A stretch of DNA of 64,000 nucleotides from a virus. Made by a program: the position numbers and the translations under genes. Location of the stretch: positions 11,418-75,417 of IMG/VR virus record IMGVR_UViG_3300035703_000058; one strand, 5' to 3'. Each line of letters starts with the position of its first letter. The stretch's first letter is position 1. Below are positions 17,039 to 55,989 of the stretch, in pieces. The notes under the pieces were generated by a model that was given only the letters and a program-made list of their open reading frames with translations, had not been told where the DNA came from and did not search any database.

Positions 17039-18261
17039 CTGCTCCCCCCCGCTACGAGATGCGCGCTGCGGCTGTCGCCGCAATCAAGCCGCGGTCATGC
17101 TTGGTGGTCTACCTCGTGCTGGTGGACCGGCTCGGCGACAACGCGACCTGCTGGCCCAAGGTCGGGTCCATCATGGCGGACACCGGCTGTGCCGAGCGCA
17201 CCGTGCAGGCCGCCCTTCGCGTGTTGGAGCAGACCGGCTGGATCGCGCAGGTCAAGGACAGCGACCGTCGGGCCAACGAGTACAGCCTGCACATCGGGGG
17301 CGCCATCGAGCGCGTCACGAAGGCGAGGGACGCGCACGAGGTTGCACCCGATGGTGCAGCCGATTGCACCCCTGCTGAGGCGCAAGGGATTGCACCCATG
17401 GGTGCAGCCGATTGCGCCGATGGGTGCAATCCGTTGCGGCTTGGGGTGCAATCCGCTGCACCCGAACCTGTCCATGAACACCTACAAGAACAAGAAATAA
17501 CTCCAAAACGCGCCTGTGTGCCCACACACGCACACGAGGCCCCCTCGCAGCCCGCCCAACTCAGCCTCACGCCGGAGCCGCAACCGGCACCCAAGCCGCA
17601 GCCCCAGTCGCAGCCCAAGCGACCGTCGAAGCCACAGCCCCCGAAGCCGGAGCCGCTGGACCCGGCGGTGTGGGATCGCTTCGCCGCGCTGGCCGTCGAG
17701 TCGGGCCAGGTCGGCAAGCTCCCGGAGCCCGGGGCGCAAAGCTACCAGAAGGGCAAGACCCGGGCCGACGTGCTGGCCGCGCTGGTGGCCGAGCACGGCG
17801 CCGAACGGGTGCTGGCGGTCTGGCGGCACACGCTGACCTCGCCGCGGAAGGACCCGACGTGGTGGCGAACGAACCGCGAAGGACCCTCGCTGATCGGCGC
17901 ATTCCTGGCCGGGGAAGCGTTTCAGAAGCTCGCCGACGACCTGGAGGCGGCCCAATCGCGGGTCGCCAAGCCCAAGCTCGTCTCGGTGCTCACCCTTGAT
18001 GGCTTGCACCCGATCGACAAGCTCGTCGCGGTGATCCGCCAGTTCGGCGACGAGCCGCCCGCGGAGGAGGTCACCCGGGCCGCGTGCGGCACCGCCGAGC
18101 ACTTCGCCGACGTGGTCGAGGCGGCGCGCTACGTCGGCCGCTGGGGCGGCGGCAGGGGCACCGTGCGGGCCGGGTGGTATCAAATCTACCAGAACCCGAG
18201 TAGCGCGGCGGACTTTCGTAAGGATTGGGATCGCGCCCAGCCGATGCGGCAGGCCCAATGA
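17035..18261 (+). CDS. phage replication initiator (N-terminal winged HTH, lambda O-like layout)
   Basis: CWPKVGSIMADTGCAERTVQAALRVLEQTGWI...NEY; internal iterons; followed by dnaB. Confidence 0.85.
   Translation: MTAPPRYEMRAAAVAAIKPRSCLVVYLVLVDRLGDNATCWPKVGSIMADTGCAERTVQAALRVLEQTGWIAQVKDSDRRANEYSLHIGGAIERVTKARDAHEVAPDGAADCTPAEAQGIAPMGAADCADGCNPLRLGVQSAAPEPVHEHLQEQEITPKRACVPTHAHEAPSQPAQLSLTPEPQPAPKPQPQSQPKRPSKPQPPKPEPLDPAVWDRFAALAVESGQVGKLPEPGAQSYQKGKTRADVLAALVAEHGAERVLAVWRHTLTSPRKDPTWWRTNREGPSLIGAFLAGEAFQKLADDLEAAQSRVAKPKLVSVLTLDGLHPIDKLVAVIRQFGDEPPAEEVTRAACGTAEHFADVVEAARYVGRWGGGRGTVRAGWYQIYQNPSSAADFRKDWDRAQPMRQAQ
17342..17510. repeat. iteron cluster plus A-rich tract, probable replication origin
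   Basis: About nine TTGCACCC/GGGTGCA(A/G) copies in both orientations, then AAGAACAAGAAATAACTCCAAAAC. Confidence 0.75.
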
Positions 18262-23589: not shown

Positions 23590-23592
23590 CCC

Positions 23593-23602
23593 CGCGATAG
23601 CC
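23593..23602 (+). promoter_or_regulatory. putative late promoter motif CGCGATAGCC
   Basis: 8 nt upstream of portal ATG; motif recurs before other structural operons. Confidence 0.6.
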
Positions 23603-23610
23603 AGCAGGAC

Positions 23611-39389: not shown

Positions 39390-39462
39390 TGCGACTTGAC
39401 GCAGCGGTTAGCGTGCTGGCCTCATAAGCCGGAAGTCGGTGGTTCGAATCCACCAGTCGCTA
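39390..39462 (+). tRNA. tRNA with CAU anticodon (Met; U1:U72 mismatch suggests initiator-like); CCA not encoded
   Basis: Cloverleaf: acceptor TGCGACT/AGTCGCT-A, D arm ACGC/GCGT, anticodon arm CTGGC-CTCATAA-GCCGG, T arm GGTGG-TTCGAAT-CCACC; TTGACG element just upstream. Confidence 0.93.
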
Positions 39463-39822
39463 CTTCTCAGGCCGCTGGACGGGCCACGCAGCCCTCGGTC
39501 GACTGGCTGTCCCGCGCGCCCACCGCTTCGCGAGCTTCAACGCCATCGCGCCCGGACGTCGGCTGCTCGTGCTGGGCAGCACCTCAGCGGCCACGGCATT
39601 CCAGGACCCGAGCCGGACGAACGCCTCGTAGCACCGCGCCCCCGTCAAGCGCCCCGGCGGCCACGGCAGCCCGGCGAGTTGGGCGTATTCGAGGGCCAGC
39701 CGCCGGGCAGTGGCCCGGGGCACGTCCAACCGACCCGCGGCGCCGGTCAGCGAGCACCCGGCGACCATGAGCGCGTACAGGCGCTGACCGGTGTCCGGTG
39801 GATGCAGGCGCGGGCGGGTCAA
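39460..39822 (-). CDS. small HTH-like protein, last gene of the Cas-associated operon
   Basis: TTG start overlaps cysH-like stop; GCSLTGAAGRLDVPRATARR; stop codon overlaps last 3 nt of tRNA. Confidence 0.6.
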   Translation of the reverse strand: MTRPRLHPPDTGQRLYALMVAGCSLTGAAGRLDVPRATARRLALEYAQLAGLPWPPGRLTGARCYEAFVRLGSWNAVAAEVLPSTSSRRPGAMALKLAKRWARGTASRPRAAWPVQRPEK

Positions 39823-40658
39823 GATACCGCCCGAACAGCCGGATCGATGTCGGCGGCGAGCTGCCACAGGTCGGGCCACCAGCGGCGCAGCCATGCGTAA
39901 TGGCTGCCAATCGTCGCGGGCAGACCGCCCACGACCCACCAGCTCTTGCGCAGAGACAGCGCATCCATCCCCGGGTCAACGCACAGATAGCAGGGCAGCA
40001 ACGGCACCTGCTCGCGAACCAGGAAGGCGTGAACGTCGAGCGCGCTCCAGGCGGCGATGGGCTGGGCCACCGTGAGCCCGTCCTTGCGCCTGTAGACGCT
40101 GCCGCGGGTGGCGTTCATGGCGCGCCCCCGGCTCTCGCCAGCCCTCAGCCCGAGCAGCGCGCCATCGTAGCCATGGTGTAGACGATGGGCGTTCAGCAGC
40201 CCATAGAAGTGCTCGGCGCTCAGCTCGGCGGTTCTGCCGTGGTGGTCGTTCAGCAGCGACCGCTGCCCGGCGAGCACCGACCACAGCGACACACCGGGGC
40301 TCAGGATGTCCAGGTGCAGGCCAAGATGGCGGCAAAGGTGCTCGATGTAGGCCCGTTCGCCGGGGTAATCGAGGTCGTCCTTGACGCTCACGGCGGGCGG
40401 GTGCCAACCATGCAGGGCCAGCAGCGCCGCCATGGCTGAGCTGTCCTTGCCGCCGCTCAGGCTCGCGCACCAACCCACCGACACCGCCGCGGCCGCATCC
40501 AGCGCCCGTCGCGCGACTGTGATCTTGTGGTCCATGGCTCGGGAGCGCGCGTGCAACGCCACCGCCCGCCACGGATAGTGCAGGCCCACATCCGAACGCC
40601 CGGGCAACGCACCATCGCCGCACCAGGCGATGATCTGGCGGAGCCAGTCAGTCCTCAT
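39819..40658 (-). CDS. CysH/PAPS-reductase-like PP-loop protein (type IV-B accessory type)
   Basis: SLSGGKDS, LGLRAGESRGR, QPIAAWSALDV. Confidence 0.88.
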   Translation of the reverse strand: MRTDWLRQIIAWCGDGALPGRSDVGLHYPWRAVALHARSRAMDHKITVARRALDAAAAVSVGWCASLSGGKDSSAMAALLALHGWHPPAVSVKDDLDYPGERAYIEHLCRHLGLHLDILSPGVSLWSVLAGQRSLLNDHHGRTAELSAEHFYGLLNAHRLHHGYDGALLGLRAGESRGRAMNATRGSVYRRKDGLTVAQPIAAWSALDVHAFLVREQVPLLPCYLCVDPGMDALSLRKSWWVVGGLPATIGSHYAWLRRWWPDLWQLAADIDPAVRAVS

Positions 40659-41241
40659 CGACCATCTCCCAGGCGCCGGAGAACTCGACGTTGCGGAACA
40701 GCTCGGCGACCCCGGTCACCTGCTTGTAGCGGTAGATGGTGTCCAGGTCCACACCCAGGGCCAGGGCGATCTGTTCGTCCTCCATGCCCTGCTCGCACAT
40801 CCGGCGTATCAGGTCGGCGTCGAGGTCCACCTGATGCACGCCGCGGGCCTTGTTGAACTGCCACGTCGCCGCCAGCCGCCGCGACAGATCGTGCGGCAAC
40901 ACCACCACGGGCAGGTAGTCACAGTCCAGCCAGTCCGGCCCCAGCACCATCTTGCGGTGGGCGCCGTCGATGACCACGAACAGGCGCTGCTCAGGATCGA
41001 ACACGGTGACGATGGGAAAGCAAAACCCGTTGTCGAGCACCGACTGGAGCAGCAGCTCCATCTTGTCGGGGCTCACGCTGTTGGGGTTGTAGAAATTCTC
41101 GACTACCAGCTCCGCACGAACCAGCACGGCGCGCAGGCAGGGCACCGGAATGCGTCCGCGGGTCTTGGAGGTGATGTAGGCGCCCTCCGACCCCCCAGCG
41201 CGCCACGCCTCGAAGTCGGCCATCGTGTCGATCCTGAGCAT
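40648..41241 (-). CDS. IbrB-like ParB/Srx-domain protein
   Basis: NFYNPNSV...MELL..S...NGF.FPIV...IDGAHR...AT..FNKARGVH. Confidence 0.9.
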   Translation of the reverse strand: MLRIDTMADFEAWRAGGSEGAYITSKTRGRIPVPCLRAVLVRAELVVENFYNPNSVSPDKMELLLQSVLDNGFCFPIVTVFDPEQRLFVVIDGAHRKMVLGPDWLDCDYLPVVVLPHDLSRRLAATWQFNKARGVHQVDLDADLIRRMCEQGMEDEQIALALGVDLDTIYRYKQVTGVAELFRNVEFSGAWEMVDED

Positions 41242-42374
41242 CAGAGCACCTCGGCGTAATGGGCGATGAGCGCGTCGCGGGGGTCGGCCTTGTTGTCAAC
41301 CGGCAGGTTGTTCTCGTAGTCGTTGAGAACGAGCTGGCGGCATTGCTGCCGGGCCACGAACTCATTGTCCAGGTGCCCGCCGAACCGGCGACGTAAGATG
41401 TCCGCCTTGGCCGGATCCGGGTGGGTCGCCAACAGGAAATCGCGGTAGACCCGCCACGAACGAAAGTTCTTCGGCAGCTTGCGGCATCGAAACAGCGTCG
41501 CCGCCTTGGCCGTTTCCTGCGCAAGCGCAATGCCCCTGATGCGCTTCTGCAGCCGCGCGTAGGTCTTGGGCTCAAAGGCAGGCAGGTCGGCCAGCGCGCG
41601 AAAGCTGCGCTCGTGTATGAGCGAAGACACTCGCCGCTCGCCCAGCGGGTAGCCCATCTTGTGCTGGAAGTCGTAGACCCTGGAGTACCTGAGCCCCTCC
41701 ATGGCGATGTACTTCCAGACATCGTGCGCGTTCCAGTCGTAGATCGGGTAGAGCGTGACGGTGCTCGCCCGGCGTGTGCCCCAATAGACGCGCTGGCCGT
41801 CGCCGATCTCGATGGGGTGCTTGGTGACCGCGCGCCAGCGGTTCGGGCTCTCTCCGGCGGCGCGCAGGCCGACCAGAAAGGCGTGGCCGGGGTAGCAGCG
41901 GGCGAAAGTCTCGATCACGTCGTAGAAGCCAAAGCCCTTGTTCCGGTCGCGCACGGTGACCTGCTCGGGCGCCCACGGTGGGTGCTGGATGGCGTCGCGC
42001 TCCTTTGCGCGCATCCAGGTTTTGTGCTCCCCCGGCTCCCAGGCGTTGAGCTGACCTTCGGTCAGGCTGGTCGCGTTGGTGAGGCGGAAAGGCACCTGAA
42101 GCCACAGCGGCCGCGTGTTCTCCGGGTACAGCGCCATCAGGTAGCGCACCTGCTCAACGCTGCTCTGGTACATGACCTCCTCATCGAGCAGGTGTACGCC
42201 GATGCGCAGCCCCCGGCGGTTGGCCTCCACCAAGGCAAGATGAGCCAACACGGTGCTGTCCTTGCCGCCGCTCACGCTGACGATCACCTTGTCGCCGAAG
42301 GCGTCGAAGACCATGCGGACACGGCGCTGGGCAGCGGCGAGCACGGTCTCACCCGTGTAGTGCTGTCGCGACAT
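41241..42374 (-). CDS. IbrA-like PAPS-reductase-family (PP-loop) protein
   Basis: VSVSGGKDS, LVGLRA..ES.NR, YPIYDW...DVW, YD......RVS.. Confidence 0.9.
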   Translation of the reverse strand: MSRQHYTGETVLAAAQRRVRMVFDAFGDKVIVSVSGGKDSTVLAHLALVEANRRGLRIGVHLLDEEVMYQSSVEQVRYLMALYPENTRPLWLQVPFRLTNATSLTEGQLNAWEPGEHKTWMRAKERDAIQHPPWAPEQVTVRDRNKGFGFYDVIETFARCYPGHAFLVGLRAAGESPNRWRAVTKHPIEIGDGQRVYWGTRRASTVTLYPIYDWNAHDVWKYIAMEGLRYSRVYDFQHKMGYPLGERRVSSLIHERSFRALADLPAFEPKTYARLQKRIRGIALAQETAKAATLFRCRKLPKNFRSWRVYRDFLLATHPDPAKADILRRRFGGHLDNEFVARQQCRQLVLNDYENNLPVDNKADPRDALIAHYAEVL

Positions 42375-43251
42375 CGCGCACCCTCCCAGCCCACGCGGTG
42401 TAACGGTCGAAGTACCAGCGGTCTACGGCGAGATCCGACACCAGCAGGGTGGCGTTGGCCTGACGGGTCACGGCCAGCGCGTCGGCGTAGTCGACGAAGT
42501 TGTGGGGGACCTCCAACAACAGGCGCGCACGGTCGTCGGCCACGTCGCGAAAGGTGGCCACATCACCACCAAGACGCTGGTTGCGGGCGAGGTAGGCGTG
42601 TCCGTTCAAGGCGCGAAATCGAGCACCACCCCCGACAAGCGCAAGGTTGCGGGGCAGGACGTGGGGGTCCTTGTCGCCGTCTTCACGCAGCTCGGCGAGC
42701 AGGCGTGCCTTCGTCGCGGCGTATGTCGCTTTGGTTCTGGCGTCGGTCTCCACAGCGCGCACGGTGAAGGCGGGCAACAGCGAACGACCCACCACCCGCA
42801 CCTCAGAGAGCATCGACGGCGCGAAGGCGTCGCGCTTCCACTTCGACCGCGTGACCCAGTCGATGAGGATCATGACGTCGTCGGGCTCGGCGATGATTGG
42901 CAAGGTCTGAAAGACCAGGACGTGCGGCGTGCGCTGGAGGTAGTTGCGCAGGCAGTTGTAGCCGAGATCGTGCCGGTTCTGCGTGCGCAATCCTTCATTG
43001 ACCACGATCAGGGTGTCGGGGTCGATCCGCTCCAACAGCGGGTAGTAGTACCGGTACATGACGATGTTGGGCCAGTCGATGAACAGGCCGGGCGCGCCGA
43101 TCTCGGTGCTGGGGTCCAGCAGCTCACGATCCCAGCCAGGCAGGCAGAACCGGCGCGGCGTGAAGACGACGACCTTGGTGAGCCCGCGCTCCACCATCGT
43201 CGCGCGGATCATCTCGGCGCGCTCGACGGGGGTGTGGCCCAAGCAGATCAC
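42349..43251 (-). CDS. conserved-looking hypothetical protein, possible degenerate SF2-helicase fold
   Basis: GTG start overlaps MTase stop; LIVVNEGLRTQNR...NC resembles a decayed Walker B; coupled to ibrA. Confidence 0.65.
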   Translation of the reverse strand: MICLGHTPVERAEMIRATMVERGLTKVVVFTPRRFCLPGWDRELLDPSTEIGAPGLFIDWPNIVMYRYYYPLLERIDPDTLIVVNEGLRTQNRHDLGYNCLRNYLQRTPHVLVFQTLPIIAEPDDVMILIDWVTRSKWKRDAFAPSMLSEVRVVGRSLLPAFTVRAVETDARTKATYAATKARLLAELREDGDKDPHVLPRNLALVGGGARFRALNGHAYLARNQRLGGDVATFRDVADDRARLLLEVPHNFVDYADALAVTRQANATLLVSDLAVDRWYFDRYTAWAGRVRDVATALHG

Positions 43252-43904
43252 GGGGTCACCGTGTAGCCGCGCCTGACCAACCAGGCGACCGTCCTGGCCA
43301 ACCGCTTCGGGTTCAGTTCGCTCCCGATGGCGTTCAGCCCGTAGTGGTGGGCCATGCGGCTGGTCATTCCCAAGCCCATGCAGGGGTCGCACACCCAGTC
43401 GCCGGGCGTGAGGGCGAGCCCATCAAAGACGCGGCGGGTCATCGCCTCACCGTGCAGGCCGGTGGGGTCCGTGACGATGGGGGTGCGGCCGAAGTGCAGC
43501 AGCAGGTTGGGCAGCAGGCGAGAACCGCTGCCGTAGAGGACCGCGTAGCGCCCGATGTCCGGCAGCATCCACCCTGGCAGGGTGCCGGCCACGTCCAGCA
43601 GCATGCCGTGGTGCTTCGGGTTGGTCGCCTGCTCCACCAGGACGTCGTCCGCGCCCCGGGCCATGCACGCCACGGCCACCGAGCACCACGCGCGGAGAAA
43701 GGCGTCGTAGGAGTCGCACCGCTCGCGACCCGCGTGGGTGCGCCAGTAGGTCGCGTTGCCAGGGTTCCAGGGCGGATCGCTGTAGACCAGACGGACACGA
43801 TCGGGAAGGTGTGCCTGATACCACGCCAGCGTGGTCGGGTCTTGCAGGTCCCCACACAGCAAGAGCTGGCGTTGCTGCCCGCGGGTGCAAACGTACATGC
43901 TCAC
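43248..43904 (-). CDS. small amino-methyltransferase (N6A/N4C, beta-type order)
   Basis: LLCGD, VYSDPPW (motif IV), CDPCMGLGMT (motif I), GSELNPKR. Confidence 0.85.
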   Translation of the reverse strand: MSMYVCTRGQQRQLLLCGDLQDPTTLAWYQAHLPDRVRLVYSDPPWNPGNATYWRTHAGRERCDSYDAFLRAWCSVAVACMARGADDVLVEQATNPKHHGMLLDVAGTLPGWMLPDIGRYAVLYGSGSRLLPNLLLHFGRTPIVTDPTGLHGEAMTRRVFDGLALTPGDWVCDPCMGLGMTSRMAHHYGLNAIGSELNPKRLARTVAWLVRRGYTVTP

Positions 43905-44611
43905 TCCGACGGGCGCGCCTGCCAGCACGCCACCCGCTGCCCGCCGTAGTAGGGCGGACGCAGCGGCAGAAGGGTTTGGACGGTGTGGGCGGGTGGATTG
44001 GACGCCCGCCCCACGGGGAGGTGTCGGAGCCGCACATCGTCGAGGTAGTCGCCCGGGGCGGGACCGCCCACGGCGACCCGCCAGCCATCAACCCAGCCGA
44101 TGCCATGGCAGCCCAACCCGCCGATCGCCGGCACCGGCGCGAGCAACCTGCCGAGCTGGTCCAGCGGCGCCAGATCCCAGCCGAGCGTGCGGTTGACCTC
44201 GCCGACGCGGGCCTCGTCCAGCACGCCGGTCCACACCAGCTCGCGGCACGCCGCCCACAGGTGCTTGCGCACGCGCAGGCTCTTGTCGGGGCCAGCCTTC
44301 ATGTCCACGGGCCCGCCGGCCCGATGGCGCATGTACCAGTCCACAGGTGCCCGGCGGTGCAGGTGGTGGGTGCGTTCAGGCCCGACCGGCGCCGCCTGAG
44401 AGGCTGCCCACCACCACAGACCCCCGTCGGCGACAACCGCCGCGAACGGCAGCAGGTCCCATACACGCGGGTTGTAGGCCGGGTGGGCGACCGGGTCCAG
44501 CCGATTCAGCCACATCGCCAGCCCAACCCCCGCGAGCGCGTCCAACATCGGCGGGTTGGGCAGGTTCGGCCCGGGCGGGCGCAGCGCCGCCGTGACGGTG
44601 ACCGGAATCAC
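43901..44611 (-). CDS. csf3: type IV Cas5-family RAMP protein Csf3
   Basis: MLDAL, WAAS, GPDKSLR, Gly-rich loop AIGGLGCHGIGWV..W, C-terminal LRPPYY. Confidence 0.85.
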   Translation of the reverse strand: MIPVTVTAALRPPGPNLPNPPMLDALAGVGLAMWLNRLDPVAHPAYNPRVWDLLPFAAVVADGGLWWWAASQAAPVGPERTHHLHRRAPVDWYMRHRAGGPVDMKAGPDKSLRVRKHLWAACRELVWTGVLDEARVGEVNRTLGWDLAPLDQLGRLLAPVPAIGGLGCHGIGWVDGWRVAVGGPAPGDYLDDVRLRHLPVGRASNPPAHTVQTLLPLRPPYYGGQRVACWQARPSE

Positions 44612-45636
44612 GACAGCCACGCCAGGATGCGGTCGCGGCGGTCGGCCAGATGTGCCCGCAGCGCCCCCGCACACTGCTCGTCCGCGGCGTCCATGGTCGC
44701 CACCGGGGCGGCGTCGGTCACCGTGAAGGGCGCCGCCGGTTCGAGCTGCCAGGCGCCCCGCACGCGCACCGACAGGGCACCGAAGTTCTCCCGGGCCACA
44801 CCGCCCACACGGGCGCCTGAGCGAATCCAGTCCGCGATCGCCAGCAGCAGCGTCCACAGCTCCACCTCGGTGGCGTTCACCAGCCGGACCTCGCCGATCA
44901 GCGGCACCCCCGCGGAGATCGCCTCGTAGGCGTAGGGCATGGACTCGTTGGCCCGGCGGCGCTCCACCGCGCCCACCTTGCCCCCACCGGCCCGCCGCTC
45001 GGCCAGCACACCTGCGTGGACGGCCTGCACCCGCTCGTCCACCGCGAGCAGGAGCGCGGCCGTGGAAGAGCTGGCGAGATCATGGCGATATCGCTGTTCG
45101 GTGTGGGTGGCCTGCGCAAGCGCAACGGGGCCGCGCCGATCTGCAAACACCGGCTCGGCGCGCCCGTCGATGGTCGCCACCGCCGGCTGCAGCCCCGCCG
45201 CGACGGCCTCCTGTGCCCACACCGCGAGCCCCGCCACCTGCACGGCGCCGCGGTTGGGTGTGCCGGCGTCCATCGACCCGAACACGCCCAGCAGGGGGCA
45301 ATTCTGCCGCAGCTCCCACTGCTCCAGGGCGTTGTACCCGCCGACGTCGCCCTTCTCGTAGCGCCCGCCCTTCAGCAGCAGGCGCAGCCGGTCCCGGCCC
45401 AACTGCTCGATGCCCAACTCGGCGAGGTAGCGGGCGACGGCGTGCTCGCGCAGCGTCGCCTTGAGCGCCGCCCCGGACAGCATCGGCACCAACAACTCCC
45501 GGTAGTCGCCGAGCGTGTCATCCCACACCACCATGCGCTGCCGGCGCAGCACCTGCTCGTTGCCCTCGGTGCTCTCGCCGTGCGCGAGCGGGGCGAGGGT
45601 GACGGCGGTGAGGTGAAACACGTAGGAGGCGATCAT
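44608..45636 (-). CDS. csf2: type IV Cas7-family RAMP protein Csf2
   Basis: APLAHG...GN...R, VPMLSGAALKATLR, LLKGG, CPLLGVFG, MPYAYEAI..G, VGG.ARENFG. Confidence 0.88.
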   Translation of the reverse strand: MIASYVFHLTAVTLAPLAHGESTEGNEQVLRRQRMVVWDDTLGDYRELLVPMLSGAALKATLREHAVARYLAELGIEQLGRDRLRLLLKGGRYEKGDVGGYNALEQWELRQNCPLLGVFGSMDAGTPNRGAVQVAGLAVWAQEAVAAGLQPAVATIDGRAEPVFADRRGPVALAQATHTEQRYRHDLASSSTAALLLAVDERVQAVHAGVLAERRAGGGKVGAVERRRANESMPYAYEAISAGVPLIGEVRLVNATEVELWTLLLAIADWIRSGARVGGVARENFGALSVRVRGAWQLEPAAPFTVTDAAPVATMDAADEQCAGALRAHLADRRDRILAWLS

Positions 45637-46163
45637 GCGGACTCTCCGGGCGGTGTGGAAACCAAAAGGGCCGGCCTGGAAAGGTTTCCGGGCTGGCCGG
45701 CAAGCGAATCCGGGGCCGCGGCAAGATCGCGCACCAGCTCGCGGGCGACGTTGGCGAGGGTCAACGCGACGGGCAGCGTGGTGCCGCCAAGCAGGGCAGC
45801 GACGTGGCGGCCCGGCTGGGCGTCGGCGGCGCGCACCCACAGCGTCTCGTCATCGCTGAGCCAGCGCCCACCCCGCATGCCCAGCTTCTCCCCGAGCTTG
45901 ACGGCCAACTCGTGCAGGCTTCTCGGGCTGGTTCGGGCGACGGCGCGCACCCGGGCCTCAAAGGCGTCGCGGTTCTCGTGATGCGGCTTGGACCGCCGCA
46001 ACACCGCGTCGGCGGCGAAGGCGCGGCTCCAGGCCAACGCGAGCACCACGGTCAACTCGGCGCCACCCATGCGGCGCTCCCGCGCGTCGAAGCCAAGCGC
46101 GGGGTTGTCGGCGATGGGGCCGATGTCGCCCACGGCGACCGCGTAGAGGTCAAGGTGACGCAT
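45633..46163 (-). CDS. type IV small subunit (Cas11-like)
   Basis: Helical ~175-aa ORF between csf1 and csf2; FEARVRAVAR...L.E...KL...LG. Confidence 0.65.
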   Translation of the reverse strand: MRHLDLYAVAVGDIGPIADNPALGFDARERRMGGAELTVVLALAWSRAFAADAVLRRSKPHHENRDAFEARVRAVARTSPRSLHELAVKLGEKLGMRGGRWLSDDETLWVRAADAQPGRHVAALLGGTTLPVALTLANVARELVRDLAAAPDSLAGQPGNLSRPALLVSTPPGESA

Positions 46164-47139
46164 CGCGGCCTCGCAGTTCGCCGACAGGGCGGCGCAGATA
46201 GAGGGCGAGGTCCAGCAACGGGCGGTGCCGATGCTTGGCGATCGTGGGCCCATGCTGGGCGATCAGCGGCAGCGCCTCTGCCCCGCCGCTGTAGGCGCCG
46301 CTGACGAGGGCCTCTTCGCGCACCCCCGCCAGCAACAGGGCCTCGATGGCTTCGATCAGCCGCGCGAGTGTCGGCGCCCTGTAGGTGATGCTCTGCCCGG
46401 CGAACCAGACGACCCGCGGCGCGCCCGGCCGCCACTGCTCGGGCATCGCGAAAAGCGCGCAATGCTTCTTCTCGACGCTCAGCACGTTGGCGCCGAGGTG
46501 GCCGCCGTCGAGGTCGTCGCGCAGCAGGTGGCGACGCATCGCGGGCTTCTCGGCGTCGGTCATCGGGCGCCAGCGCGGCATGCCGTTCGGGTCGGGCAAC
46601 GTGACGTGGTGCCAGACGAAGAACCGCTGCTCCAGCCCCGGAGCGAGGCGGTCGGCCGGGTAGGCGCCGACGTAGCGGACGGGGCCAACGTCGCCGGGCG
46701 CGACGCGCTGGCGGTCGAGCTGTGCGGCCCACGCATCCTCCGCGCTCTTCGGCGTCGCGGGCGTCCACAGCCCGATCGTGCCGTCCGCAAGCTCCAGCAC
46801 GAGGCGCTTCTGTGCGGGCGCGCCGTCGATGCAGACCTCGGTGCGCCGGTTGCCCCGCCAGGCCAACGTGGCACGCTCCCGCAGACGCTCGGCCGCGAGC
46901 GACCCGGGCAACGCAAAGCCACTCGCCAGCGTCCACCCACAGGCGGCGCACAGGTGGGTCGCGTGGCCAGCCCGGGCGAAGTCACGGGCCGGAAACGTGT
47001 CGGGCAGCAACCGCAGCGGCCACCCCTCGCCGGACGCATTCACCCCACACCACCAGCAGGGACCGGTGTAGGCGGTAAAATCGGGATGTGTGGGGCGGCC
47101 TGCGGCCTCCCACAGCACCCATGTCGCGCTCGGCATCAT
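46150..47139 (-). CDS. csf1: type IV large subunit Csf1 (Cas8-like)
   Basis: N-terminal CWWCG...DTF...D.......LCAACGW Zn-binding signature; KKH motif; first gene of csf operon. Confidence 0.82.
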   Translation of the reverse strand: MMPSATWVLWEAAGRPTHPDFTAYTGPCWWCGVNASGEGWPLRLLPDTFPARDFARAGHATHLCAACGWTLASGFALPGSLAAERLRERATLAWRGNRRTEVCIDGAPAQKRLVLELADGTIGLWTPATPKSAEDAWAAQLDRQRVAPGDVGPVRYVGAYPADRLAPGLEQRFFVWHHVTLPDPNGMPRWRPMTDAEKPAMRRHLLRDDLDGGHLGANVLSVEKKHCALFAMPEQWRPGAPRVVWFAGQSITYRAPTLARLIEAIEALLLAGVREEALVSGAYSGGAEALPLIAQHGPTIAKHRHRPLLDLALYLRRPVGELRGRDASP

Positions 47140-47179
47140 GTAGGCCATGTACCCCAACGGGCCACAACGCGCAACCCTG

Positions 47180-47530
47180 CTACTCGGCGACCGACACCGC
47201 CCCCGCCAGCCACGGCCCAAGCGGCGGCGGCAGCTTCGCCGCGTACAGCGCCAGCACCGCGGCGTCCACCACCTCGTCGTGGCCGGCATCGCGCAGCCCA
47301 CGCCCCAGCCCGGCGAGCGCCACCACCAACAGGGACAACAGATCCAGGTTAGCCCGCGCCGCAGACGCCAACAGGCGCCCGATCGGGGTGTCGTCGAGCG
47401 TCATCCCGTAGACGACATCGGCGATGACGATGGCGTCGCGGGGGTCGTCGGGATCGTGGGGACCCAGCTCGGGCTGGGTCGCGCCAGGGCAACCGTGGAT
47501 CAGGTCGGTCAACTCGCACAGGTCGTACAT
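47180..47530 (-). CDS. hypothetical protein upstream of csf1
   Basis: GAGG RBS before ATG 47530 (MYDLCELTDL). Confidence 0.55.
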   Translation of the reverse strand: MYDLCELTDLIHGCPGATQPELGPHDPDDPRDAIVIADVVYGMTLDDTPIGRLLASAARANLDLLSLLVVALAGLGRGLRDAGHDEVVDAAVLALYAAKLPPPLGPWLAGAVSVAE

Positions 47531-47746
47531 CGGCACCTCGTCTGGTACATGGCGCGAGCAGGCGAAGTGTGAATCTTTTTCTGCATGTTGGCGCGTTGGT
47601 TAGCTCGGCCATCGGACCGGTTGTACACTTCGCCAACGTTCGGCCTTTCCGCGTGGGGCCGTGAATGGCGCCGACCCCCGGTGCGTCTACGCGCGACTTG
47701 CCACCAAAGGCTGTCCGGCGTAGAGTGGCGGTCAAAAGGAGTCCCC

Positions 47747-48310
47747 ATGCTCACACTCGCTCTTCTCGCCCTGCTCGGATGCGCCCCCACCTGCAACGAG
47801 GTGGAGGGGGCGATCTGTGCGGACGACGTTCAGGCGCTGCAGGAGCGTATGGACCAGCTCGAAGCCGCTGGCGCCACCTACGCCTGGTTCGACCAGGACG
47901 GCGTCCAGGTGACCGATGGGCCGGAGCTGGTGTGGTTTGACGAGGCGGGGGTGCTTTGGCAGGTGGACGCCGATCGAGGCATCCCCGACGCCTACGCCAC
48001 CGAATACGACGTGGCGGGAACGGTCTTCCACATGACCGAGGACTGCTCGGACCCCGGCTACTACGGCGGGTTGGCCTCGCCCAAGGTGGCCTTCTACAAC
48101 GGGGACGCCCGCGACGATTACCCGGTCTACGTGCGCGATGCGTCACCCGACGAGATTTACGCCCGGGCCGTGGCTTACGAGGCCGATAGCGGCGAGTGCC
48201 GCGAGGGCGGGCCGAATCGTGACCAGCACCTGGTTCCGACGACCGAGCTGCACGAGATTGCCCGACCCGATGTGGTGTGGCCAGCCCCGCTCTACCCGAA
48301 GACCTTGTAG
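47747..48310 (+). CDS. predicted lipoprotein
   Basis: AAAAGGAG RBS; MLTLALLALLG-C lipobox; acidic mature domain. Confidence 0.8.
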   Translation: MLTLALLALLGCAPTCNEVEGAICADDVQALQERMDQLEAAGATYAWFDQDGVQVTDGPELVWFDEAGVLWQVDADRGIPDAYATEYDVAGTVFHMTEDCSDPGYYGGLASPKVAFYNGDARDDYPVYVRDASPDEIYARAVAYEADSGECREGGPNRDQHLVPTTELHEIARPDVVWPAPLYPKTL

Positions 48311-48316
48311 CGGGGA

Positions 48317-49525
48317 CTACATTCCAGGCGCCTGGATGTGGCCCTCGGTGTACTCGACCGTCACGTCGGCTACCTTGCAGCCACCGCCGGTCTTGTCCAG
48401 TATCAAACGCCAAAAGTAGTAGTACGTACTCGGATCCAGCGTTTGACTGATGGCCCCGGAATCAAACAACGTCCAGGCGCCCGTGGTTGCGAATTCGGTG
48501 GCCTCGGTGTAGTTGAGTAGCACGCCCTCCGCACCTGCTCCGTTTCTGGCCACCCTCACAAATTCCAAGCTGAGCTGGTCACCCGCGGCGTTGCGGTTGT
48601 AGCGCAACTTGATCTGGGTGATGGCCCGCCTCGCACCCGCATTGATCGCCGTAGTGGTGTTCACCGGCAGCACCAACGGCCGGATGAGCGGCACATAGGT
48701 GCCGTCGGTGGGCTCCACATACGGAGGTGTCGCGCCCACGAACATCGTCAGCGTGCCATAGGCGCCTGACCCATCCTGGATCATGCTCACCCACCCACCC
48801 GCATAGGGCGAGATATCCAGCTCAAAGGTCTGTACGCTGGAGTAACGGACGAAGGTGTTGTCGACCGCGTACGGCTCCAAGGTCACACCCTCGTTGGCGG
48901 TCAGGAGTCCCGCCGCCGTGAGGGCCGCCTGCACGTTCACGCTGCCATCCACGTCCAGGTTCGCCACCCCCGCCCCGGTGTTCCGCACGTAGAGGGTCTG
49001 GTTGGAGCCGCTGCTGACCTCGAAGGCCCAGGCCGCCGACGCCGCCAGCGTAGACCGCCACACGCCGCCGACCAGCTCCAGCTCCACCCGCGTCGCCGAG
49101 CCGATGGCGTCAACCTGCAGGATGACCGCCTCGGCGAGCGAGGCACCAACCCCGATCGTCGCGGTGTTGTCGCTGGCCCGCCCGGCGTCTCGGAACTCCA
49201 GCCGCCCGCCCTGACCGGCCCCGGTGCCCTCGCCGCGGATGACGACGGAGTCGCACACGATGTCCTCATGCGACCCGTCGGCGATGGCGCCGCCGAAGGC
49301 GTCGGTGGTGTTGGCGGTGTAGTGCTCTTCGGCGAAGGGGGTGCCAGCCTCGTTGGTGAGCCACTCCAGATACTCCCCGATCTCGTAGAGCGCGCGGTTG
49401 AGTTGCGAGGCCGTCAGCAGGTCGTAGCTGGCGTAGCCGTCCAGCCGGAGCTGGTTGGGCAGCACGGTGGAGGCGGGTGGCGACGTGGTGGCCCACTGGA
49501 AGACGGAAAAGGCGGGGATGGCCAC
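48317..49525 (-). CDS. tail fibre/receptor-binding protein
   Basis: AGGAG RBS, GTG 49525; N-terminal WAT...P......GY......A...N......YLEWL baseplate-anchor motif; lower-GC C-terminus. Confidence 0.78.
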   Translation of the reverse strand: MAIPAFSVFQWATTSPPASTVLPNQLRLDGYASYDLLTASQLNRALYEIGEYLEWLTNEAGTPFAEEHYTANTTDAFGGAIADGSHEDIVCDSVVIRGEGTGAGQGGRLEFRDAGRASDNTATIGVGASLAEAVILQVDAIGSATRVELELVGGVWRSTLAASAAWAFEVSSGSNQTLYVRNTGAGVANLDVDGSVNVQAALTAAGLLTANEGVTLEPYAVDNTFVRYSSVQTFELDISPYAGGWVSMIQDGSGAYGTLTMFVGATPPYVEPTDGTYVPLIRPLVLPVNTTTAINAGARRAITQIKLRYNRNAAGDQLSLEFVRVARNGAGAEGVLLNYTEATEFATTGAWTLFDSGAISQTLDPSTYYYFWRLILDKTGGGCKVADVTVEYTEGHIQAPGM

Positions 49526-49533
49526 GGGGGCTC

Positions 49534-50121
49534 CTACGGGTAGAGTTGGCGGGAGAGGGCGCCCGCGCCGAACCCGGCGGGGGTGGCGTTGGCGGGGGAC
49601 TCGAAGCCGACCGGGCTGGCGGTGTACTCGACCAGCAGCATGGTCACCCCGGCGGGCTTGATGGCGACCATGAAGCGCATCACCCGGCCCAGCAGGGCGT
49701 CGGCCAGCGGGGTGGAGCGCCCGAAGTACAACCGAAACCCGGCGGCGAACATGTCGTAGTGGACCGCCACGCAGGGCGCGGCGATCAGCTCCAGGATGGC
49801 CAGCAGCTCGTCCGGTGTGCCGTTGCACTTCCTGGCGAGCAGACGCGCGGCGATGAAGCGCCGGTAGTCGGCGTCGTCCAGCCCTTCGCGGCGCTCGCCG
49901 ACGATGGACCCGAGCAGGTCCAGGTCCGCGTCGTTGGCGGTGTCAAGCCCGAGCGCCAGGGCCCGGGCGGCGATCTCGTCCTCCAGCACCTGACAGCCGT
50001 GGGCGAGCGCGCGGACGAACGCCTCCAGGCGCGGCTTGCCATACAGGCCGGCGGGCAGGTTGTTGACGGCGGCGTCGCCGATGAGGAGGTTGTGTACCAG
50101 CTCGTAGGTGTCGGAGGCCAT
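49534..50121 (-). CDS. baseplate wedge protein (DUF2612/gpI-like)
   Basis: LDTA....LDLLGSIVG..R.GLDD..YR; KPAGV. Confidence 0.85.
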   Translation of the reverse strand: MASDTYELVHNLLIGDAAVNNLPAGLYGKPRLEAFVRALAHGCQVLEDEIAARALALGLDTANDADLDLLGSIVGERREGLDDADYRRFIAARLLARKCNGTPDELLAILELIAAPCVAVHYDMFAAGFRLYFGRSTPLADALLGRVMRFMVAIKPAGVTMLLVEYTASPVGFESPANATPAGFGAGALSRQLYP

Positions 50122-51308
50122 CAGGTCGTGACGCTCGCGGTGCCGTTGAGGGTGCAGCGCTCGTAGAGGTTCGGGGTGACGACGGCGGCGCCGTTGAGGG
50201 TGATGGCGCTGACGCGGCGGACGCCGGTCACCCGCATGATGGCGGTGTCGTCTTCGTCGTCGTTGCGACCGGCCTTGAGGTCGTCGTCGGTGATCTCCTC
50301 ACCGATGGCGGCATCGGCGAAGTAGGCGGCCACGGCGTCTTTGACGGCTTGCGAGACGTCGGCCAGCACGTAGCCGGTGTCCAGCACCACCGTGACGGCG
50401 ACCGTCACCGACAGATCGGCGACGTCATCCCACCGAACTGTTTTCGTCAGCCCATCGCCGCCCGTGATGGTGACGACGTTGTCGCTCCCGTTGGTCTTGA
50501 TGCCCGCGGCCAGCCGCTCATAGACGGTCTCGGCGATCTCTTCCTTCTGCGCCGTCGTGAGGTCGGCGCCGGGCGGATCGAGGATGATGGCGATGGACTG
50601 TGGGTCAAGGTTGACGCCGCCGGTCGTCACCGAGGCGGCGGTGTCGTTCTCGATGACGATGGCCGTGTCGATGTAGTCGAGGTCGGTCAACGCGGCCCGG
50701 ATGGCGTTCGTTGAGCCCGACCCGGCGAACTGCAGCGAGGCCGCCTGTCGCAGCCGGTAGGCGCTGTCCGTCTCCAGGGCGCGGCCCGCGGTGGCGGCGG
50801 CCGCGTTGGACACCGCGGTCCAGCCGGAGACCGGCGTCACGATGGTGTCGATCTCGGTGGCGAGCGCGGCCACCGCCCCGGCTTCGACGGCCTGCACGGT
50901 CGCCGACACGGTGCCCCCGCCGCCGATGGTGGCGTCGTCGGTCAGCGCCCACCGGGCCGCGCCGTCGGTGCCGCCGCCCTCAACAATCTTGCCCTGTGGG
51001 ATGACGGTGCCGGCGGTGCCGGTGAGGGTAACGGTCGCCGTCGAGTGGGTGGCCTGGTTGCGGGCGATGCCACGAAGGGCGCCGATGCCGTCGAGCTGCG
51101 TACCCTGCGCGGAGTCGGGGTCAAGCTGGTCGTTGAGCGACTGCAGGGCTTCGCCAAGGTTGCCCAGCTCGTTGGCGAGCACCGCGAAGAGCACATCGAG
51201 CAGATCGCCGCGCCCGACCTCCACGGTGCCGCCGTTGGCGTCGGCGGCGAAGGCGGAGCGCATTGCGGTGTCGAAGTCGGTCGCGCGGGGCGCGGAGTAG
51301 CTGGCCAT
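50121..51308 (-). CDS. baseplate J-like protein
   Basis: PDSAQG..LD, GTAGTVIPQG, IVTPVSGW, GR..ETD..YR.R, IEND. Confidence 0.92.
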   Translation of the reverse strand: MASYSAPRATDFDTAMRSAFAADANGGTVEVGRGDLLDVLFAVLANELGNLGEALQSLNDQLDPDSAQGTQLDGIGALRGIARNQATHSTATVTLTGTAGTVIPQGKIVEGGGTDGAARWALTDDATIGGGGTVSATVQAVEAGAVAALATEIDTIVTPVSGWTAVSNAAAATAGRALETDSAYRLRQAASLQFAGSGSTNAIRAALTDLDYIDTAIVIENDTAASVTTGGVNLDPQSIAIILDPPGADLTTAQKEEIAETVYERLAAGIKTNGSDNVVTITGGDGLTKTVRWDDVADLSVTVAVTVVLDTGYVLADVSQAVKDAVAAYFADAAIGEEITDDDLKAGRNDDEDDTAIMRVTGVRRVSAITLNGAAVVTPNLYERCTLNGTASVTT

Positions 51309-51314
51309 GGTGTC

Positions 51315-51740
51315 CTATGGCGCCGTGGGCGCCACCACGATGGCGCGCGGGCGAATGGTGATGGCGGGGTAGGTGTTGCCGCCGACCGCCGTGGGCGTCG
51401 CGACGATCTCCAGGTGCGTGCCGTCGGCGGTGACGGCGTTGCCGGTCACGGTGAGCAGGCCGGTGGTGCGGTTGAGGCTGCCGGTCCAGTCGGAGACGCT
51501 GACGACGCCGACGGTCTCCCGGACTTCGCGGCGGACCCGGGCCACGATGGCGTCCACGGCGACCGGCTTCGTGGTGAGCCAGACCACGTACGGGAGGCCC
51601 TTCGTGGCGTCGCGCAGGCCCTCACCGAGATGGGTCGTGAGCCGGATGTAGACGCGCTGCGCGACCAGCTCGGCGCCGACGTGGGGCCGGCCATACAGCG
51701 GCAGATCGCCATCGGTGTCCAGCGCAAGGTCAATCGGCAT
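51315..51740 (-). CDS. baseplate wedge/sheath initiator (gp25/W-like)
   Basis: DLALD..GDL...VAQR...RL.T..GE...D...GLPY...GV. Confidence 0.85.
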   Translation of the reverse strand: MPIDLALDTDGDLPLYGRPHVGAELVAQRVYIRLTTHLGEGLRDATKGLPYVVWLTTKPVAVDAIVARVRREVRETVGVVSVSDWTGSLNRTTGLLTVTGNAVTADGTHLEIVATPTAVGGNTYPAITIRPRAIVVAPTAP

Positions 51741-51743
51741 GGT

Positions 51744-51781
51744 GGGGGGCTATCGCGCCTCGCGGCCCGCGATAGCCCCCC
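51744..51781. promoter_or_regulatory. perfect 14-bp inverted repeat carrying two divergent CGCGATAGCC motifs
   Basis: GGGGGGCTATCGCG-N10-CGCGATAGCCCCCC between divergent structural operons. Confidence 0.7.
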
Positions 51782-54405: not shown

Positions 54406-55989
54406 ATGCGGATCGTGGCCGGCGACGCCCGGCAGGTGACGCTCACCGCGTCCATCACCAGCCCGACATCGCAGGCGACGCTTGCCGCCCGGCAGGTGAC
54501 GCTCACGCCGTCGGGTGGCACCGCGTACACCTACTCGGGCGCGTTGACGCGGCCCACGGGGTCGGGCGCCGCGCTCGACAACGCCGCCATCGCCGACCCT
54601 TCCTTTACCCCCGACGTGCCGGGCAGCTACGTCGTCACCATCACGGCGACCGACACCGCGTCAGGCGCCACGGTGACGCGCTCCAGCACGTTGGAGGTGC
54701 GCTCGCCGCTGTCGATCTCGTTGAGCAGCACCAGCTCAACGCAGGACAACCTGAACGCCGTGTCGACGACCGTGACGCCAACGGGCGGGCTCGGCACCAT
54801 CACCTACAGCGCGACGCTGACGCCGCCCACCGGGGGCACCACCACGGTCACCGGGCCGACGACCACCACGCCGTCCTTCACCCCCGACCGCGCTGGCGGC
54901 TGGCGGCTCACCGTGACGGCCACCGACGCCGCGGGCCAGACGGCGACGACGACGCGGCTGGTCGAGGTGGGCACCTCCGCGCTCTCGGTGTCGATCGGCG
55001 CGATCTCAGACCAGACGGCCGCCACCGGCACGATCAACTGCGACGCCACCGTGTCGGGCGGGCTCGGCAGCCTCAGCTACGCCTGGACCGGCGAGGGACC
55101 GGACGGCGCCGCGCTGAGCTTTGCCGACCCTGCCGCGGCGAACACGACCCTTACGCTCTCGGCGAGCAAGCGACCGGGGAACTACACCGTTACCGTCACG
55201 GTAACGGACTCGGCGCGCGCGCAGACCGCCCGGGCCACCGTCACGTTCCGTGTGGGCACGGCGACCGGCTGGGTCACCGGCTACACGCACGACTACACCG
55301 CCGACGGCAACGAGACCATCTCGGGCTCGCCGTGGGGTGATTGGACAGTCCTGAACGTCGCCAACGCCTCCACCTTCGCCATCGTCGCCGGCACCGGGCT
55401 ACGCATCATCGCCAGCACCGGCACCCTCAACGCCGGCACCCGCACCCCCCCGGGCATCTCGCGCGCCATCAGCGGGCTGGCCTCGATGTACGCGGCGGGC
55501 CGTCGGGTCGGCGTACACGTTCAGATCGGCGCCGCCTCCGCGGTCGGCGCCTCACAGCGCAAGATCGGCGCGCTCTTCGAGGACGTCACGACGCCGATCG
55601 GCGACGGCGGCACGACCGAGCGCGGCGGCGGCGTCCTGTGGCGGAACAACGGCGGCACCATCCAGGTGGCAGGCCTGATGTGCGGGCTCAGCTCGGGCTC
55701 CGCTCTCGTCCAGAACGCCCGACCGACCACCGAGACGGCGCCGCGCGTGCTGGCCTTCGAGCGGTCCGATTGGACCTTCCGGGTTGGACACTCGACCTCC
55801 ACCGCCGCGTGGGGCGATCCCGCACACGCCTCCTGGGTGTGGTCCGAGTACGTCGGCATCGACTACACCGGCACCGCCGACAAGCTGGTTCCGGCGACCG
55901 ACCTGCTCACCATCTTCGCTGCCTGTGATGCCGCCAGCGCGGGCGCACAGATCGACCTCGAAAAGCTCTGGGTAGGTGTCCAGTGGTAG
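54406..55989 (+). CDS. PKD/Ig-like repeat protein, putative virion adhesin
   Basis: Three repeats ending PSFTPD..G.Y/W...TATD or GNYTVTVTVTD plus a C-terminal beta domain. Confidence 0.75.
   Translation: MRIVAGDARQVTLTASITSPTSQATLAARQVTLTPSGGTAYTYSGALTRPTGSGAALDNAAIADPSFTPDVPGSYVVTITATDTASGATVTRSSTLEVRSPLSISLSSTSSTQDNLNAVSTTVTPTGGLGTITYSATLTPPTGGTTTVTGPTTTTPSFTPDRAGGWRLTVTATDAAGQTATTTRLVEVGTSALSVSIGAISDQTAATGTINCDATVSGGLGSLSYAWTGEGPDGAALSFADPAAANTTLTLSASKRPGNYTVTVTVTDSARAQTARATVTFRVGTATGWVTGYTHDYTADGNETISGSPWGDWTVLNVANASTFAIVAGTGLRIIASTGTLNAGTRTPPGISRAISGLASMYAAGRRVGVHVQIGAASAVGASQRKIGALFEDVTTPIGDGGTTERGGGVLWRNNGGTIQVAGLMCGLSSGSALVQNARPTTETAPRVLAFERSDWTFRVGHSTSTAAWGDPAHASWVWSEYVGIDYTGTADKLVPATDLLTIFAACDAASAGAQIDLEKLWVGVQW

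Follow-up and report, generated by a model that had tools for sequence, protein, structure and literature searches.

Subtype IV-B is, to our knowledge, the sole CRISPR-Cas subtype without a known function, and IbrA/IbrB pairs, which are common in phages, are equally unexplained. Here we analyse a phage operon in which genes of both kinds lie together. It is encoded in a 64,000-nt stretch of DNA (hereafter the window) that covers bases 11418–75417 of the 75,417-bp single-contig virus record IMGVR_UViG_3300035703_000058 from IMG/VR (70% G+C), and a sequence-only reading had described it as an array-less type IV-B-like effector joined in one operon to a methyltransferase (MTase), IbrAB-like genes and a second PP-loop enzyme. 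Virus-borne IV-B loci with CysH are already in the literature (PMC10848311, PMC7038947, PMC8175902), and the neighbours described for IV-B genes are cysH, an N6-MTase and an ADP-ribosyltransferase (PMC8175902, PMC7038947); the literature that we searched, outside which many journals lie, gave no link of IbrA, IbrB or an SNF2-like protein to type IV-B. The locus and its relatives tie type IV-B and IbrAB together in three ways: a single operon interleaves their genes, the IbrAB genes have as partner either the Cas set or an SNF2 helicase but never both, and the tail of IbrA is predicted to be held by a pseudo-SNF2 protein. What we consider new is a widespread cassette around IbrAB, the exclusivity of Csf and SNF2 over 61 loci, a confident pseudo-SNF2 fold, the predicted contact between this protein and IbrA, and an example with cysH on a phage with direct terminal repeats (DTR).

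Like the subtype IV-B locus of Mycobacterium sp. JS623 (7JHY), the operon combines four effector genes with a Cas-type cysH on a mobile element, and has no array, cas6, adaptation gene or helicase. It differs from that locus in the four extra enzyme genes placed between csf3 and cysH in the same operon, in a Csf1 that is ∼100 aa longer than JS623 Csf1 (329 versus 228 aa), and in a Csf2 so diverged that tblastn fails to match it to plasmids or phages. The Csf2-family profile matches Csf2 of the JS623 complex at 2e-19, and the protein itself matches NCBIfam cas7_csf2 at 6.6e-6. Csf1 carries N-terminal CxxC...CxxC zinc-finger motifs (read from the translation), and its family aligns with JS623 Csf1 over the N-terminal 65 columns (hhalign probability 92.9%), while the Csf3 family aligns with JS623 Csf3 over 159 columns (96.3%). 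By sequence, the match of Cas11 to its JS623 counterpart is weak (hhalign 19%). Its AlphaFold2 (AF2) model, which has a predicted local distance difference test (pLDDT) score of 76, finds 7jhy_h as the top VIA-align match with Z 9.4, root-mean-square deviation 4.2 and 134/143 residues aligned (runner-up Z 5.4), values of Z that helical bundles may reach by chance; Foldseek gave no match with this model. None of the four Cas-like proteins matches Pfam, single-sequence PDB searches gave nothing for Csf2 or Csf3, and the PDB matches obtained in this way for Csf1 were rejected as spurious. A set of 5.8 billion clustered proteins contains no more than 17 relatives of Csf2, each of them metagenomic; tblastn with Csf2 returned no match in 50,697 phage records and none in plasmids, and genome contigs yielded no locus when searched with the Csf2 alignment.

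The closest plasmid homologues of the CysH-like protein are cysH genes that adjoin type IV-B loci, on pMYCSM02 of Mycobacterium sp. JS623 and on Rhodococcus plasmids, and judged by these best plasmid matches it belongs to the Cas-linked type. No cysteine is conserved (≥90%) among the 14 sequences of its family, an absence already noted for Cas-linked CysH (PMC8175902). The lack of an array, cas1, cas2, cas6 and dinG, which the sequence-only reading had reported for the window, extends over the whole 75,417-bp record: there is no CRISPR array in either, Cas1, Cas2 and DinG-type Helicase_C_2 have no match in the record, and relatives of the Cas6-like proteins of two related loci (L005 and L006, see below) are missing from the phage genome. 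Neither Pfam nor PADLOC finds a nuclease in the operon. Because every feature of the subtype that can be tested on sequence was found, we assign the locus to subtype IV-B and agree with the earlier description of it as an array-less type IV-B effector with CysH.

The genes wedged between csf3 and cysH, translationally coupled to both neighbours, with start and stop codons overlapping or abutting at both junctions, form a cassette of their own. A scan with the alignment of orf6, the pseudo-SNF2 gene, collected 60 related loci (50 from IMG/VR and 10 from genomes or metagenome-assembled genomes) that carry the four-gene set of MTase, pseudo-SNF2, IbrA and IbrB, and genes in these loci were detected with iterated hidden Markov models on six-frame open reading frames (ORFs). 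The cassettes span 34–70% GC and occur in Gammaproteobacteria, Desulfobulbales, Acidobacteria, Chloroflexota and Bacteroidota. Orf6, IbrA and IbrB are invariably together and in the same order, and the DPPW MTase lies just upstream or downstream of them in nearly all loci with enough flanking sequence. Among the 61 cassette loci, 18 have Csf genes within the available flanks; for the 22 loci with at least 4 kb on both sides the number is 11. The co-occurrence of csf with the MTase and IbrAB genes, on which the sequence-only reading had staked its coupling of the two, is thus a recurrent one, the two sets being together and interleaved in 18 related loci. The arrangement differs between them: csf-MTase-orf6-IbrA-IbrB-CysH, as in the window, in L016, L017, L037 and L042; csf1-csf2-csf3-CysH-MTase-orf6-IbrA-IbrB in L015, L021 and L030; csf2-CysH-cassette-csf3 in L020 and L033; csf2-cassette-CysH-csf3 in L068; csf1-cassette-CysH-csf2-csf3 in L067; cassette-csf1-csf2-csf3 in L038; and a convergent one in L025. 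Of the 18 Csf loci, 16 also have CysH, which is not found with a complete cassette that lacks Csf (two loci that seem to depart from this lie at contig ends), so that in the related loci CysH tracks Csf and not the cassette. We are highly confident that two units make up this composite operon, the IV-B effector with CysH on one side and the MTase/pseudo-SNF2/IbrA/IbrB cassette on the other.

The closest relative, a 133-kb IMG/VR contig (L001) that was obtained, like L002, L005 and L006, with the Csf2 alignment, has csf1, cas11, csf2, two extra genes, csf3, MTase, orf6, IbrA, IbrB, two small genes and CysH in this order. One of the extra genes between its csf2 and csf3 (L001:11062-12111) encodes a phage zinc-finger protein, and its cysH is followed (L001:17620-20450) by genes for a uracil-DNA glycosylase (UDG)-like protein, an S-adenosylmethionine (SAM) methyltransferase and a tyrosine integrase. 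Identity between the window and L001 is 83% for IbrA and 39% for Csf2. For Csf2, pairwise distances show a modest correlation with the orf6 distances (r 0.44, p 0.002) and the IbrA distances (r 0.30, p 0.014), and the correlation between orf6 and IbrA is strong (r 0.80); Csf2 is much the faster to evolve, its mean p-distance being 0.69 and that of IbrA 0.33. On a 36-kb metagenome contig (L005) Csf and cassette are combined in yet a different order, and in L002 and L006 Csf stands without the cassette. L006 also carries CysH; in the L002 locus neither CysH nor the cassette was found, and there a B12-binding radical SAM gene (L002:7638-9182) directly follows csf3, where the window has the MTase and IbrAB genes, and a ResIII/Helicase_C helicase gene precedes csf1. 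In L005 and L006 the gene after csf3 (L005:7608-8396 and L006:4400-5239) has a weak Cas6b_C match (7.5e-7 and 1e-3, respectively), the two products being 45% identical to each other, and no repeat array was found in the available sequence of either locus. Some members of the IV-B branch to which these two loci belong may, by this resemblance, process RNA. The idea that their Cas6-like proteins are relatives of orf6 was rejected, as the proteins are unrelated.

The clearest pattern in the related loci concerns what stands beside the cassette. Using a SNF2 model built from the helicase parts of fused relatives of orf6 and searched against all 61 loci, we found 33 loci in which a full SNF2 helicase immediately precedes orf6, 18 with Csf and none with both (Fisher p = 1e-8, a value that overstates the exclusivity because the loci include near-copies). 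Partner changes were therefore also counted on the IbrA tree, where at least four are needed and at least three are forced by well-supported branches. Ten loci have neither partner, six of them without upstream sequence. At the usual place of the partner L018 (3068-7360) and L031 (6728-7657) have LAGLIDADG and RRXRR homing endonucleases or an IS1595 transposase. Four of the SNF2-type loci (L041, L047, L055 and L059) carry IbrA-IbrB or orf6-IbrA-IbrB doubled in tandem, the copies having diverged from each other. In the phage record itself SNF2-rel_dom has no match anywhere. Types IV-A and IV-D, in which Csf genes go with a DinG or RecD helicase, likewise pair a nuclease-free Csf complex with a helicase-superfamily protein; however, the partner in the window has an SNF2 fold without ATPase motifs and comes without an array, and where relatives of the window have an active SNF2 helicase, it takes the place of Csf and does not accompany it.

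The helicase-like remnant that the sequence-only reading had named between the MTase and IbrA was fairly described. The AF2 model of orf6 (pLDDT 97) has the ATPase cores of ISW1, CHD1 and INO80 as top Foldseek matches (E ∼1e-7, TMq 0.56–0.66), a language-model search with the protein also points at SNF2-related clusters, and in longer, fused relatives the orf6 domain comes after a complete SNF2 helicase. The Walker A position (motif I) reads CLGHT and the Walker B position (motif II) NEG, and the consensus of the family, which comprises 179 cluster representatives, has no P-loop lysine motif. Sequence searches gave no match in Pfam (SNF2 included), PHROGs, PADLOC or the PDB, and tblastn found no relatives in isolated phages. 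On the strength of the model we are confident that orf6 adopts the SNF2-type two-lobe fold; we do not class it as an active SNF2 ATPase, because both Walker motifs, A and B, are missing and Pfam SNF2 does not match.

This pseudo-SNF2 protein may be the point at which IbrA is held. When IbrA, IbrB and orf6 were folded together on an alignment for each chain, orf6 being the partner that was scored, the complex reached 0.64 and the best of three controls 0.00; of solved complexes 58 of 80 attained this mark, as did 2 of 110 mismatched pairs, a calibration made on single-chain pairs with other alignments, whereas our prediction has three chains and our own alignments. The runs share at least 49% of contacts, with a partner pLDDT of at least 87. 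In the predicted interface the last 14 residues of IbrA (364-377) lie against residues 181-203 and 275-279 of orf6, and it holds invariant or near-invariant residues on both sides (D364 and L377 of IbrA; P196, P200, L203 and D277 of orf6). The prediction thus supports a complex in which the C-terminal tail of IbrA docks on the pseudo-SNF2.

In the MTase, motif IV (DPPW) comes ahead of motif I (DxCxGxG), and D41, P42, P43, D171, G175 and G177 are conserved in 40 relatives. Its Pfam N6_N4_Mtase match scores 29.4 bits (cut-off 26.7) and it resembles the DNA N6_N4 family and CcrM, not MT-A70; by these sequence signatures it is a beta-class N6/N4 amino-methyltransferase. IbrA, with SGGKDS intact, matches Pfam PAPS_reduct (2.1e-9) and DUF3440 (7.8e-7) as well as phrog_2302 (5.6e-69). 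IbrB matches phrog_2159, a ParB-like protein, at 3.3e-35 and the resolvase-type helix-turn-helix (HTH) domain HTH_7 of Pfam at 6.7e-5, and its profile finds Noc (2.5e-5), ParB (1.3e-3) and SbnI (∼0.01) in the PDB. The PP-loop, MTase and ParB/Srx DGxHR motifs are all intact and conserved. IbrA/IbrB-type pairs occur in 211 records of isolated phages, with ∼35% identity in IbrA, for example gp21/gp22 of Flavobacterium phage 1H, and relatives of IbrAB carry the annotation 'co-activators of prophage gene expression'. Like these phage and prophage pairs, the window has a two-domain IbrA beside a ParB-like IbrB, but its pair belongs to a stricter cassette with the pseudo-SNF2 and the DPPW MTase and is joined to Cas genes.

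A PP-loop protein of the PAPS-reductase family beside a ParB-superfamily protein with a DGxHR-type motif is also what is seen in the DNA phosphorothioation systems Dnd/Ssp and BREX type 4 (DndC/SspD/BrxP and DndB), and IbrA has weak PADLOC matches to DndC and BrxP. The analogy, which the sequence-only reading had drawn for the Dnd/Ssp-type modifications, fails on the chemistry, as neither PP-loop family has a conserved cysteine (for IbrA, none at ≥90% among 45 sequences). A search of the operon proteins with Pfam, NCBIfam and PADLOC, confined to the operon, gave no match to a cysteine desulfurase, DndD/DndE or SspB/SspC. Sulfur insertion is unlikely because the conserved PP-loop cysteine is missing from both families and the operon has no desulfurase or DndD/DndE. 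The enzymes imply instead, as far as their motifs tell, an ATP-dependent adenylation by two cysteine-free PP-loop enzymes together with a SAM-dependent methylation of an amino group. A chain in which a base carbonyl would receive an amine, by amination or amine addition, and would then be N-methylated is speculative.

That the two units of the operon are functionally coupled we consider probable, because the interleaving is repeated, Csf is otherwise rare in phages and the either/or relation with the SNF2 helicase has arisen repeatedly. It should be noted that a single RNP-directed (ribonucleoprotein) modification machine, as proposed by the sequence-only reading, is a reasonable inference from this genomic pattern. 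Since the cassette pairs with SNF2 or with Csf and CysH, never with both, the Csf RNP could stand in for the SNF2 motor, and we tentatively put it forward as the replacement for SNF2 as the access device of the cassette. The cassette would then require a nucleic-acid-engaging partner, a role that usually falls to an SNF2 translocase and that the Csf RNP with CysH would fill in the window. The RNP would bind, and perhaps open, DNA where the RNA that it carries directs; the pseudo-SNF2 would be a docking or DNA-binding subunit holding the C-terminal tail of IbrA; and this pair, with IbrB, the MTase and CysH, would carry out a covalent modification of nucleic acid that depends on ATP (adenylation) and on SAM. 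The likeliest target would be the phage's own DNA, or that of the host, and the purpose anti-restriction or gene control. The contact between Csf and cassette, the DNA substrate, the chemistry and the guide are what we infer beyond the gene content; DNA is the favoured substrate, on the grounds that Csf replaces a double-stranded DNA motor, that IbrB is of the ParB/HTH kind and that the MTase falls in the DNA N6/N4 family. Taken as a whole, the explanation by a composite operon, a Csf stand-in and a modification is the one we favour, with reservations.

Several observations weigh against it. Half or more of the cassettes are without Csf and canonical IV-B loci are without the cassette, and since each unit also works without the other, the link between them is facultative. 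Four fully flanked loci have neither partner, and in two or three of these homing endonucleases or an IS element lie upstream. The loci are not independent, several being near-copies, and the complex score was calibrated on a design other than ours, as described above. Neither a guide RNA gene nor an array or a structured RNA was detected. PP-loop enzymes act mostly on RNA or small molecules. RNA is a possible substrate because of this habit and because the JS623 IV-B complex assembled on heterogeneous non-CRISPR RNA (PMC7937560).

The either/or relation between partners offers a testable clue to the function of type IV-B, and it leads to a defined question, namely whether a Csf RNP delivers ATP/SAM-dependent modification to DNA, for which the SNF2-partnered cassettes are natural controls. 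The boldest answer would make type IV-B a programmable epigenetic writer, with Csf as a natural RNA-guided module for covalent DNA modification that repeatedly replaced the SNF2 translocase, and with IV-B and IbrAB in one pathway. We think this doubtful at present; if true, IV-B would be a programmable way of targeting DNA modification rather than an immune effector, and the functions of IV-B and of IbrAB would be explained together.

Two independent accessory modules could also share a phage hot spot and a promoter with no functional exchange. Each unit is indeed found alone (plasmid IV-B loci without the cassette, L002 and L006, and 33 cassette loci without Csf), phage accessory genes tend to cluster, and the disparity between IbrA and Csf2 in their identity to L001 looks modular. 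Mere cohabitation, however, is hard to square with cassette genes placed among csf genes in at least four different arrangements, with strict SNF2 exclusivity over 51 informative loci and at least three partner switches, with start and stop codons that overlap across the junctions, or with the rarity of Csf elsewhere in phages, where the tblastn search with Csf2 returned 0 matches. We consider it unlikely that the modules are unconnected.

Another possibility is that the machine works on RNA, a Csf filament capturing host or phage RNAs (CRISPR RNA (crRNA), tRNA, rRNA or mRNA) that the PP-loop enzymes and the MTase would modify or neutralise, in the service of anti-defence or takeover. Of the PP-loop base modifiers that have been characterised, most have tRNA as their substrate, and the MT-A70 RNA m6A methyltransferases share the DPPW motif. 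The heterogeneous RNA in the JS623 complex (PMC7937560) and the failure to detect an array or guide fit such a machine as well. It becomes quite unlikely, however, when one considers that the partner replaced by Csf is an SNF2 translocase of double-stranded DNA, that IbrB has a ParB/Srx fold with an HTH, that the MTase fits the DNA N6_N4 family and CcrM, not MT-A70, and that the tRNA gene adjoining the operon is not conserved.

Very unlikely, in our estimation, is a purely regulatory device in which a DNA-binding complex of the ParB/HTH protein, the pseudo-SNF2 and the Csf RNP switches phage or host transcription, like IbrA/IbrB of E. coli, which are described as co-activators of prophage genes, and modifies nothing covalently. 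The co-activator annotation of IbrAB relatives is in line with it, as are the place of the operon inside the tail and baseplate morphogenesis block and the repression by type IV-A, which does not depend on a nuclease (PMC11519345). It is hard to hold because three enzymes keep intact and highly conserved catalytic motifs (two PP-loops and motifs IV and I of the MTase) though nothing would be modified. Least probable of all is a weapon between phages or mobile elements, or a superinfection exclusion device, whose RNP would mark or block competitors with phage-made RNAs or borrowed host crRNAs: type IV systems have been tied to mobile-element conflicts (PMC7038947) and the Cas6b_C-like gene after csf3 in L005 and L006 hints at RNA processing in some members, but the phage record has no array, cas6 or adaptation genes and the operon no nuclease that we could find.

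The operon itself was delimited by gene calls that rest on codon-position G+C and start-codon context. They give nine minus-strand genes (47139..39819) whose ends overlap or abut (Table 1).

Table 1. Genes and adjoining features of the operon, with positions in the window
Feature	Position	Strand	Support and remarks
csf1, Cas8-like large subunit, 329 aa	46150..47139	-	PADLOC typeIV_Cas8 2.3e-8; alternative start 47148
cas11 small subunit, 176 aa, all-helical	45633..46163	-	AF2 model and VIA-align match 7jhy_h
csf2, Cas7 backbone subunit, 342 aa	44608..45636	-	PADLOC typeIV_Cas7 7.8e-32; start in ATGA overlap
csf3, Cas5, 236 aa	43901..44611	-	PADLOC typeIV_Cas5 1.6e-10; start in GTGA overlap
Beta-class amino-methyltransferase, 216 aa	43248..43898	-	Pfam N6_N4_Mtase 9.7e-7
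orf6 pseudo-SNF2, 300 aa	42349..43251	-	AF2 fold, Foldseek; start in GTGA overlap
IbrA-like PP-loop + DUF3440 protein, 377 aa, SGGKDS	41241..42374	-	Pfam, phrog_2302
IbrB-like ParB/Srx protein with C-terminal HTH, 197 aa, DGxHR	40648..41241	-	phrog_2159, Pfam HTH_7; ATGA overlap with IbrA
Cas-type CysH-like PP-loop protein, 279 aa, SGGKDS	39819..40658	-	Pfam PAPS_reduct 1.7e-10
Unverified ORF ('HTH') or 356-nt non-coding operon tail	39460..39822	-	No family match
tRNA-Met(CAT)	39390..39463	+	ARAGORN; Rfam 62.4 bits; converges on operon

The sequence-only reading had counted ten genes, and nine tightly packed ones stand; the tenth, the 'HTH' ORF, is unverified. This ORF has no match in Pfam, NCBIfam, PADLOC or PHROGs and no homologue in 69 related loci, and its codon-position GC (0.73/0.67/0.86) is atypical and its coding statistics are weak. 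Taken as RNA, the 356 nt that follow cysH show no better folding than shuffled versions (z = +0.9). A scan for promoters and terminators inside the operon gave nothing above chance. Directly upstream of csf1, on the minus strand at 47180-47536, lies a small ORF of ∼118 aa with good G+C at third codon positions and with a homologue in no related locus; it may be the first gene of the operon. The converging tRNA, which had been presented as part of the system, has to be dropped from it: of 43 related loci a single one has a tRNA-Met gene, at a distance of 4 kb from the cassette, so the tRNA is not conserved beside the cassette or the Csf genes and is probably an incidental neighbour.

The phage origin of the operon, claimed by the sequence-only reading, is borne out by the record. 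PHROGs matches include a DnaB-like helicase, the large terminase, portal, maturation protease, major head protein, tape measure and baseplate wedge, and from the structural genes among them we conclude that this is a tailed phage. The record ends in terminal repeats with a 127-bp overlap (DTR), and we regard it as a complete phage genome; the CheckV completeness estimate is 74 despite these repeats. The operon lies between a plus-strand tail block, which ends at ∼39349, and a minus-strand baseplate block (∼47180-51749). A search with the terminase did not find a close isolate, and the sole match of the operon DNA to phage records is the tRNA. Among public sequencing runs, one subsurface metagenome alone contains the full record and may be where it came from, and no RNA run is listed as containing it.

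Two candidate mini-arrays in the window were examined and rejected. A pair of 27-nt repeats at 54426/54486 is a coding repeat in a tail-fibre-like ORF (54406-55989), where the repeated peptide ARQVTLT gives DNA repeats 60 nt apart that mimic a two-repeat mini-array, and a 21-nt pair at 39578/39648 is imperfect and without structure signal. Elsewhere in the window, the replication module encodes a second, large DNA methyltransferase of 733 aa (14448-16649; phrog_116, 6.4e-95), so that with the operon enzyme the phage has at least two DNA MTases. The portal protein (23590-26088) is 832 aa long and portal families cover residues 52-471 only, which leaves a C-terminal extension of ∼360 aa unexplained. 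Just upstream of the DnaB-like helicase region, a cluster at 17329-17460 holds imperfect 22-nt repeats with GGTGCAnnCGATTGC-type units (2.7 copies by Tandem Repeats Finder) together with a 42-nt pair, and it may be an iteron or origin-like element.

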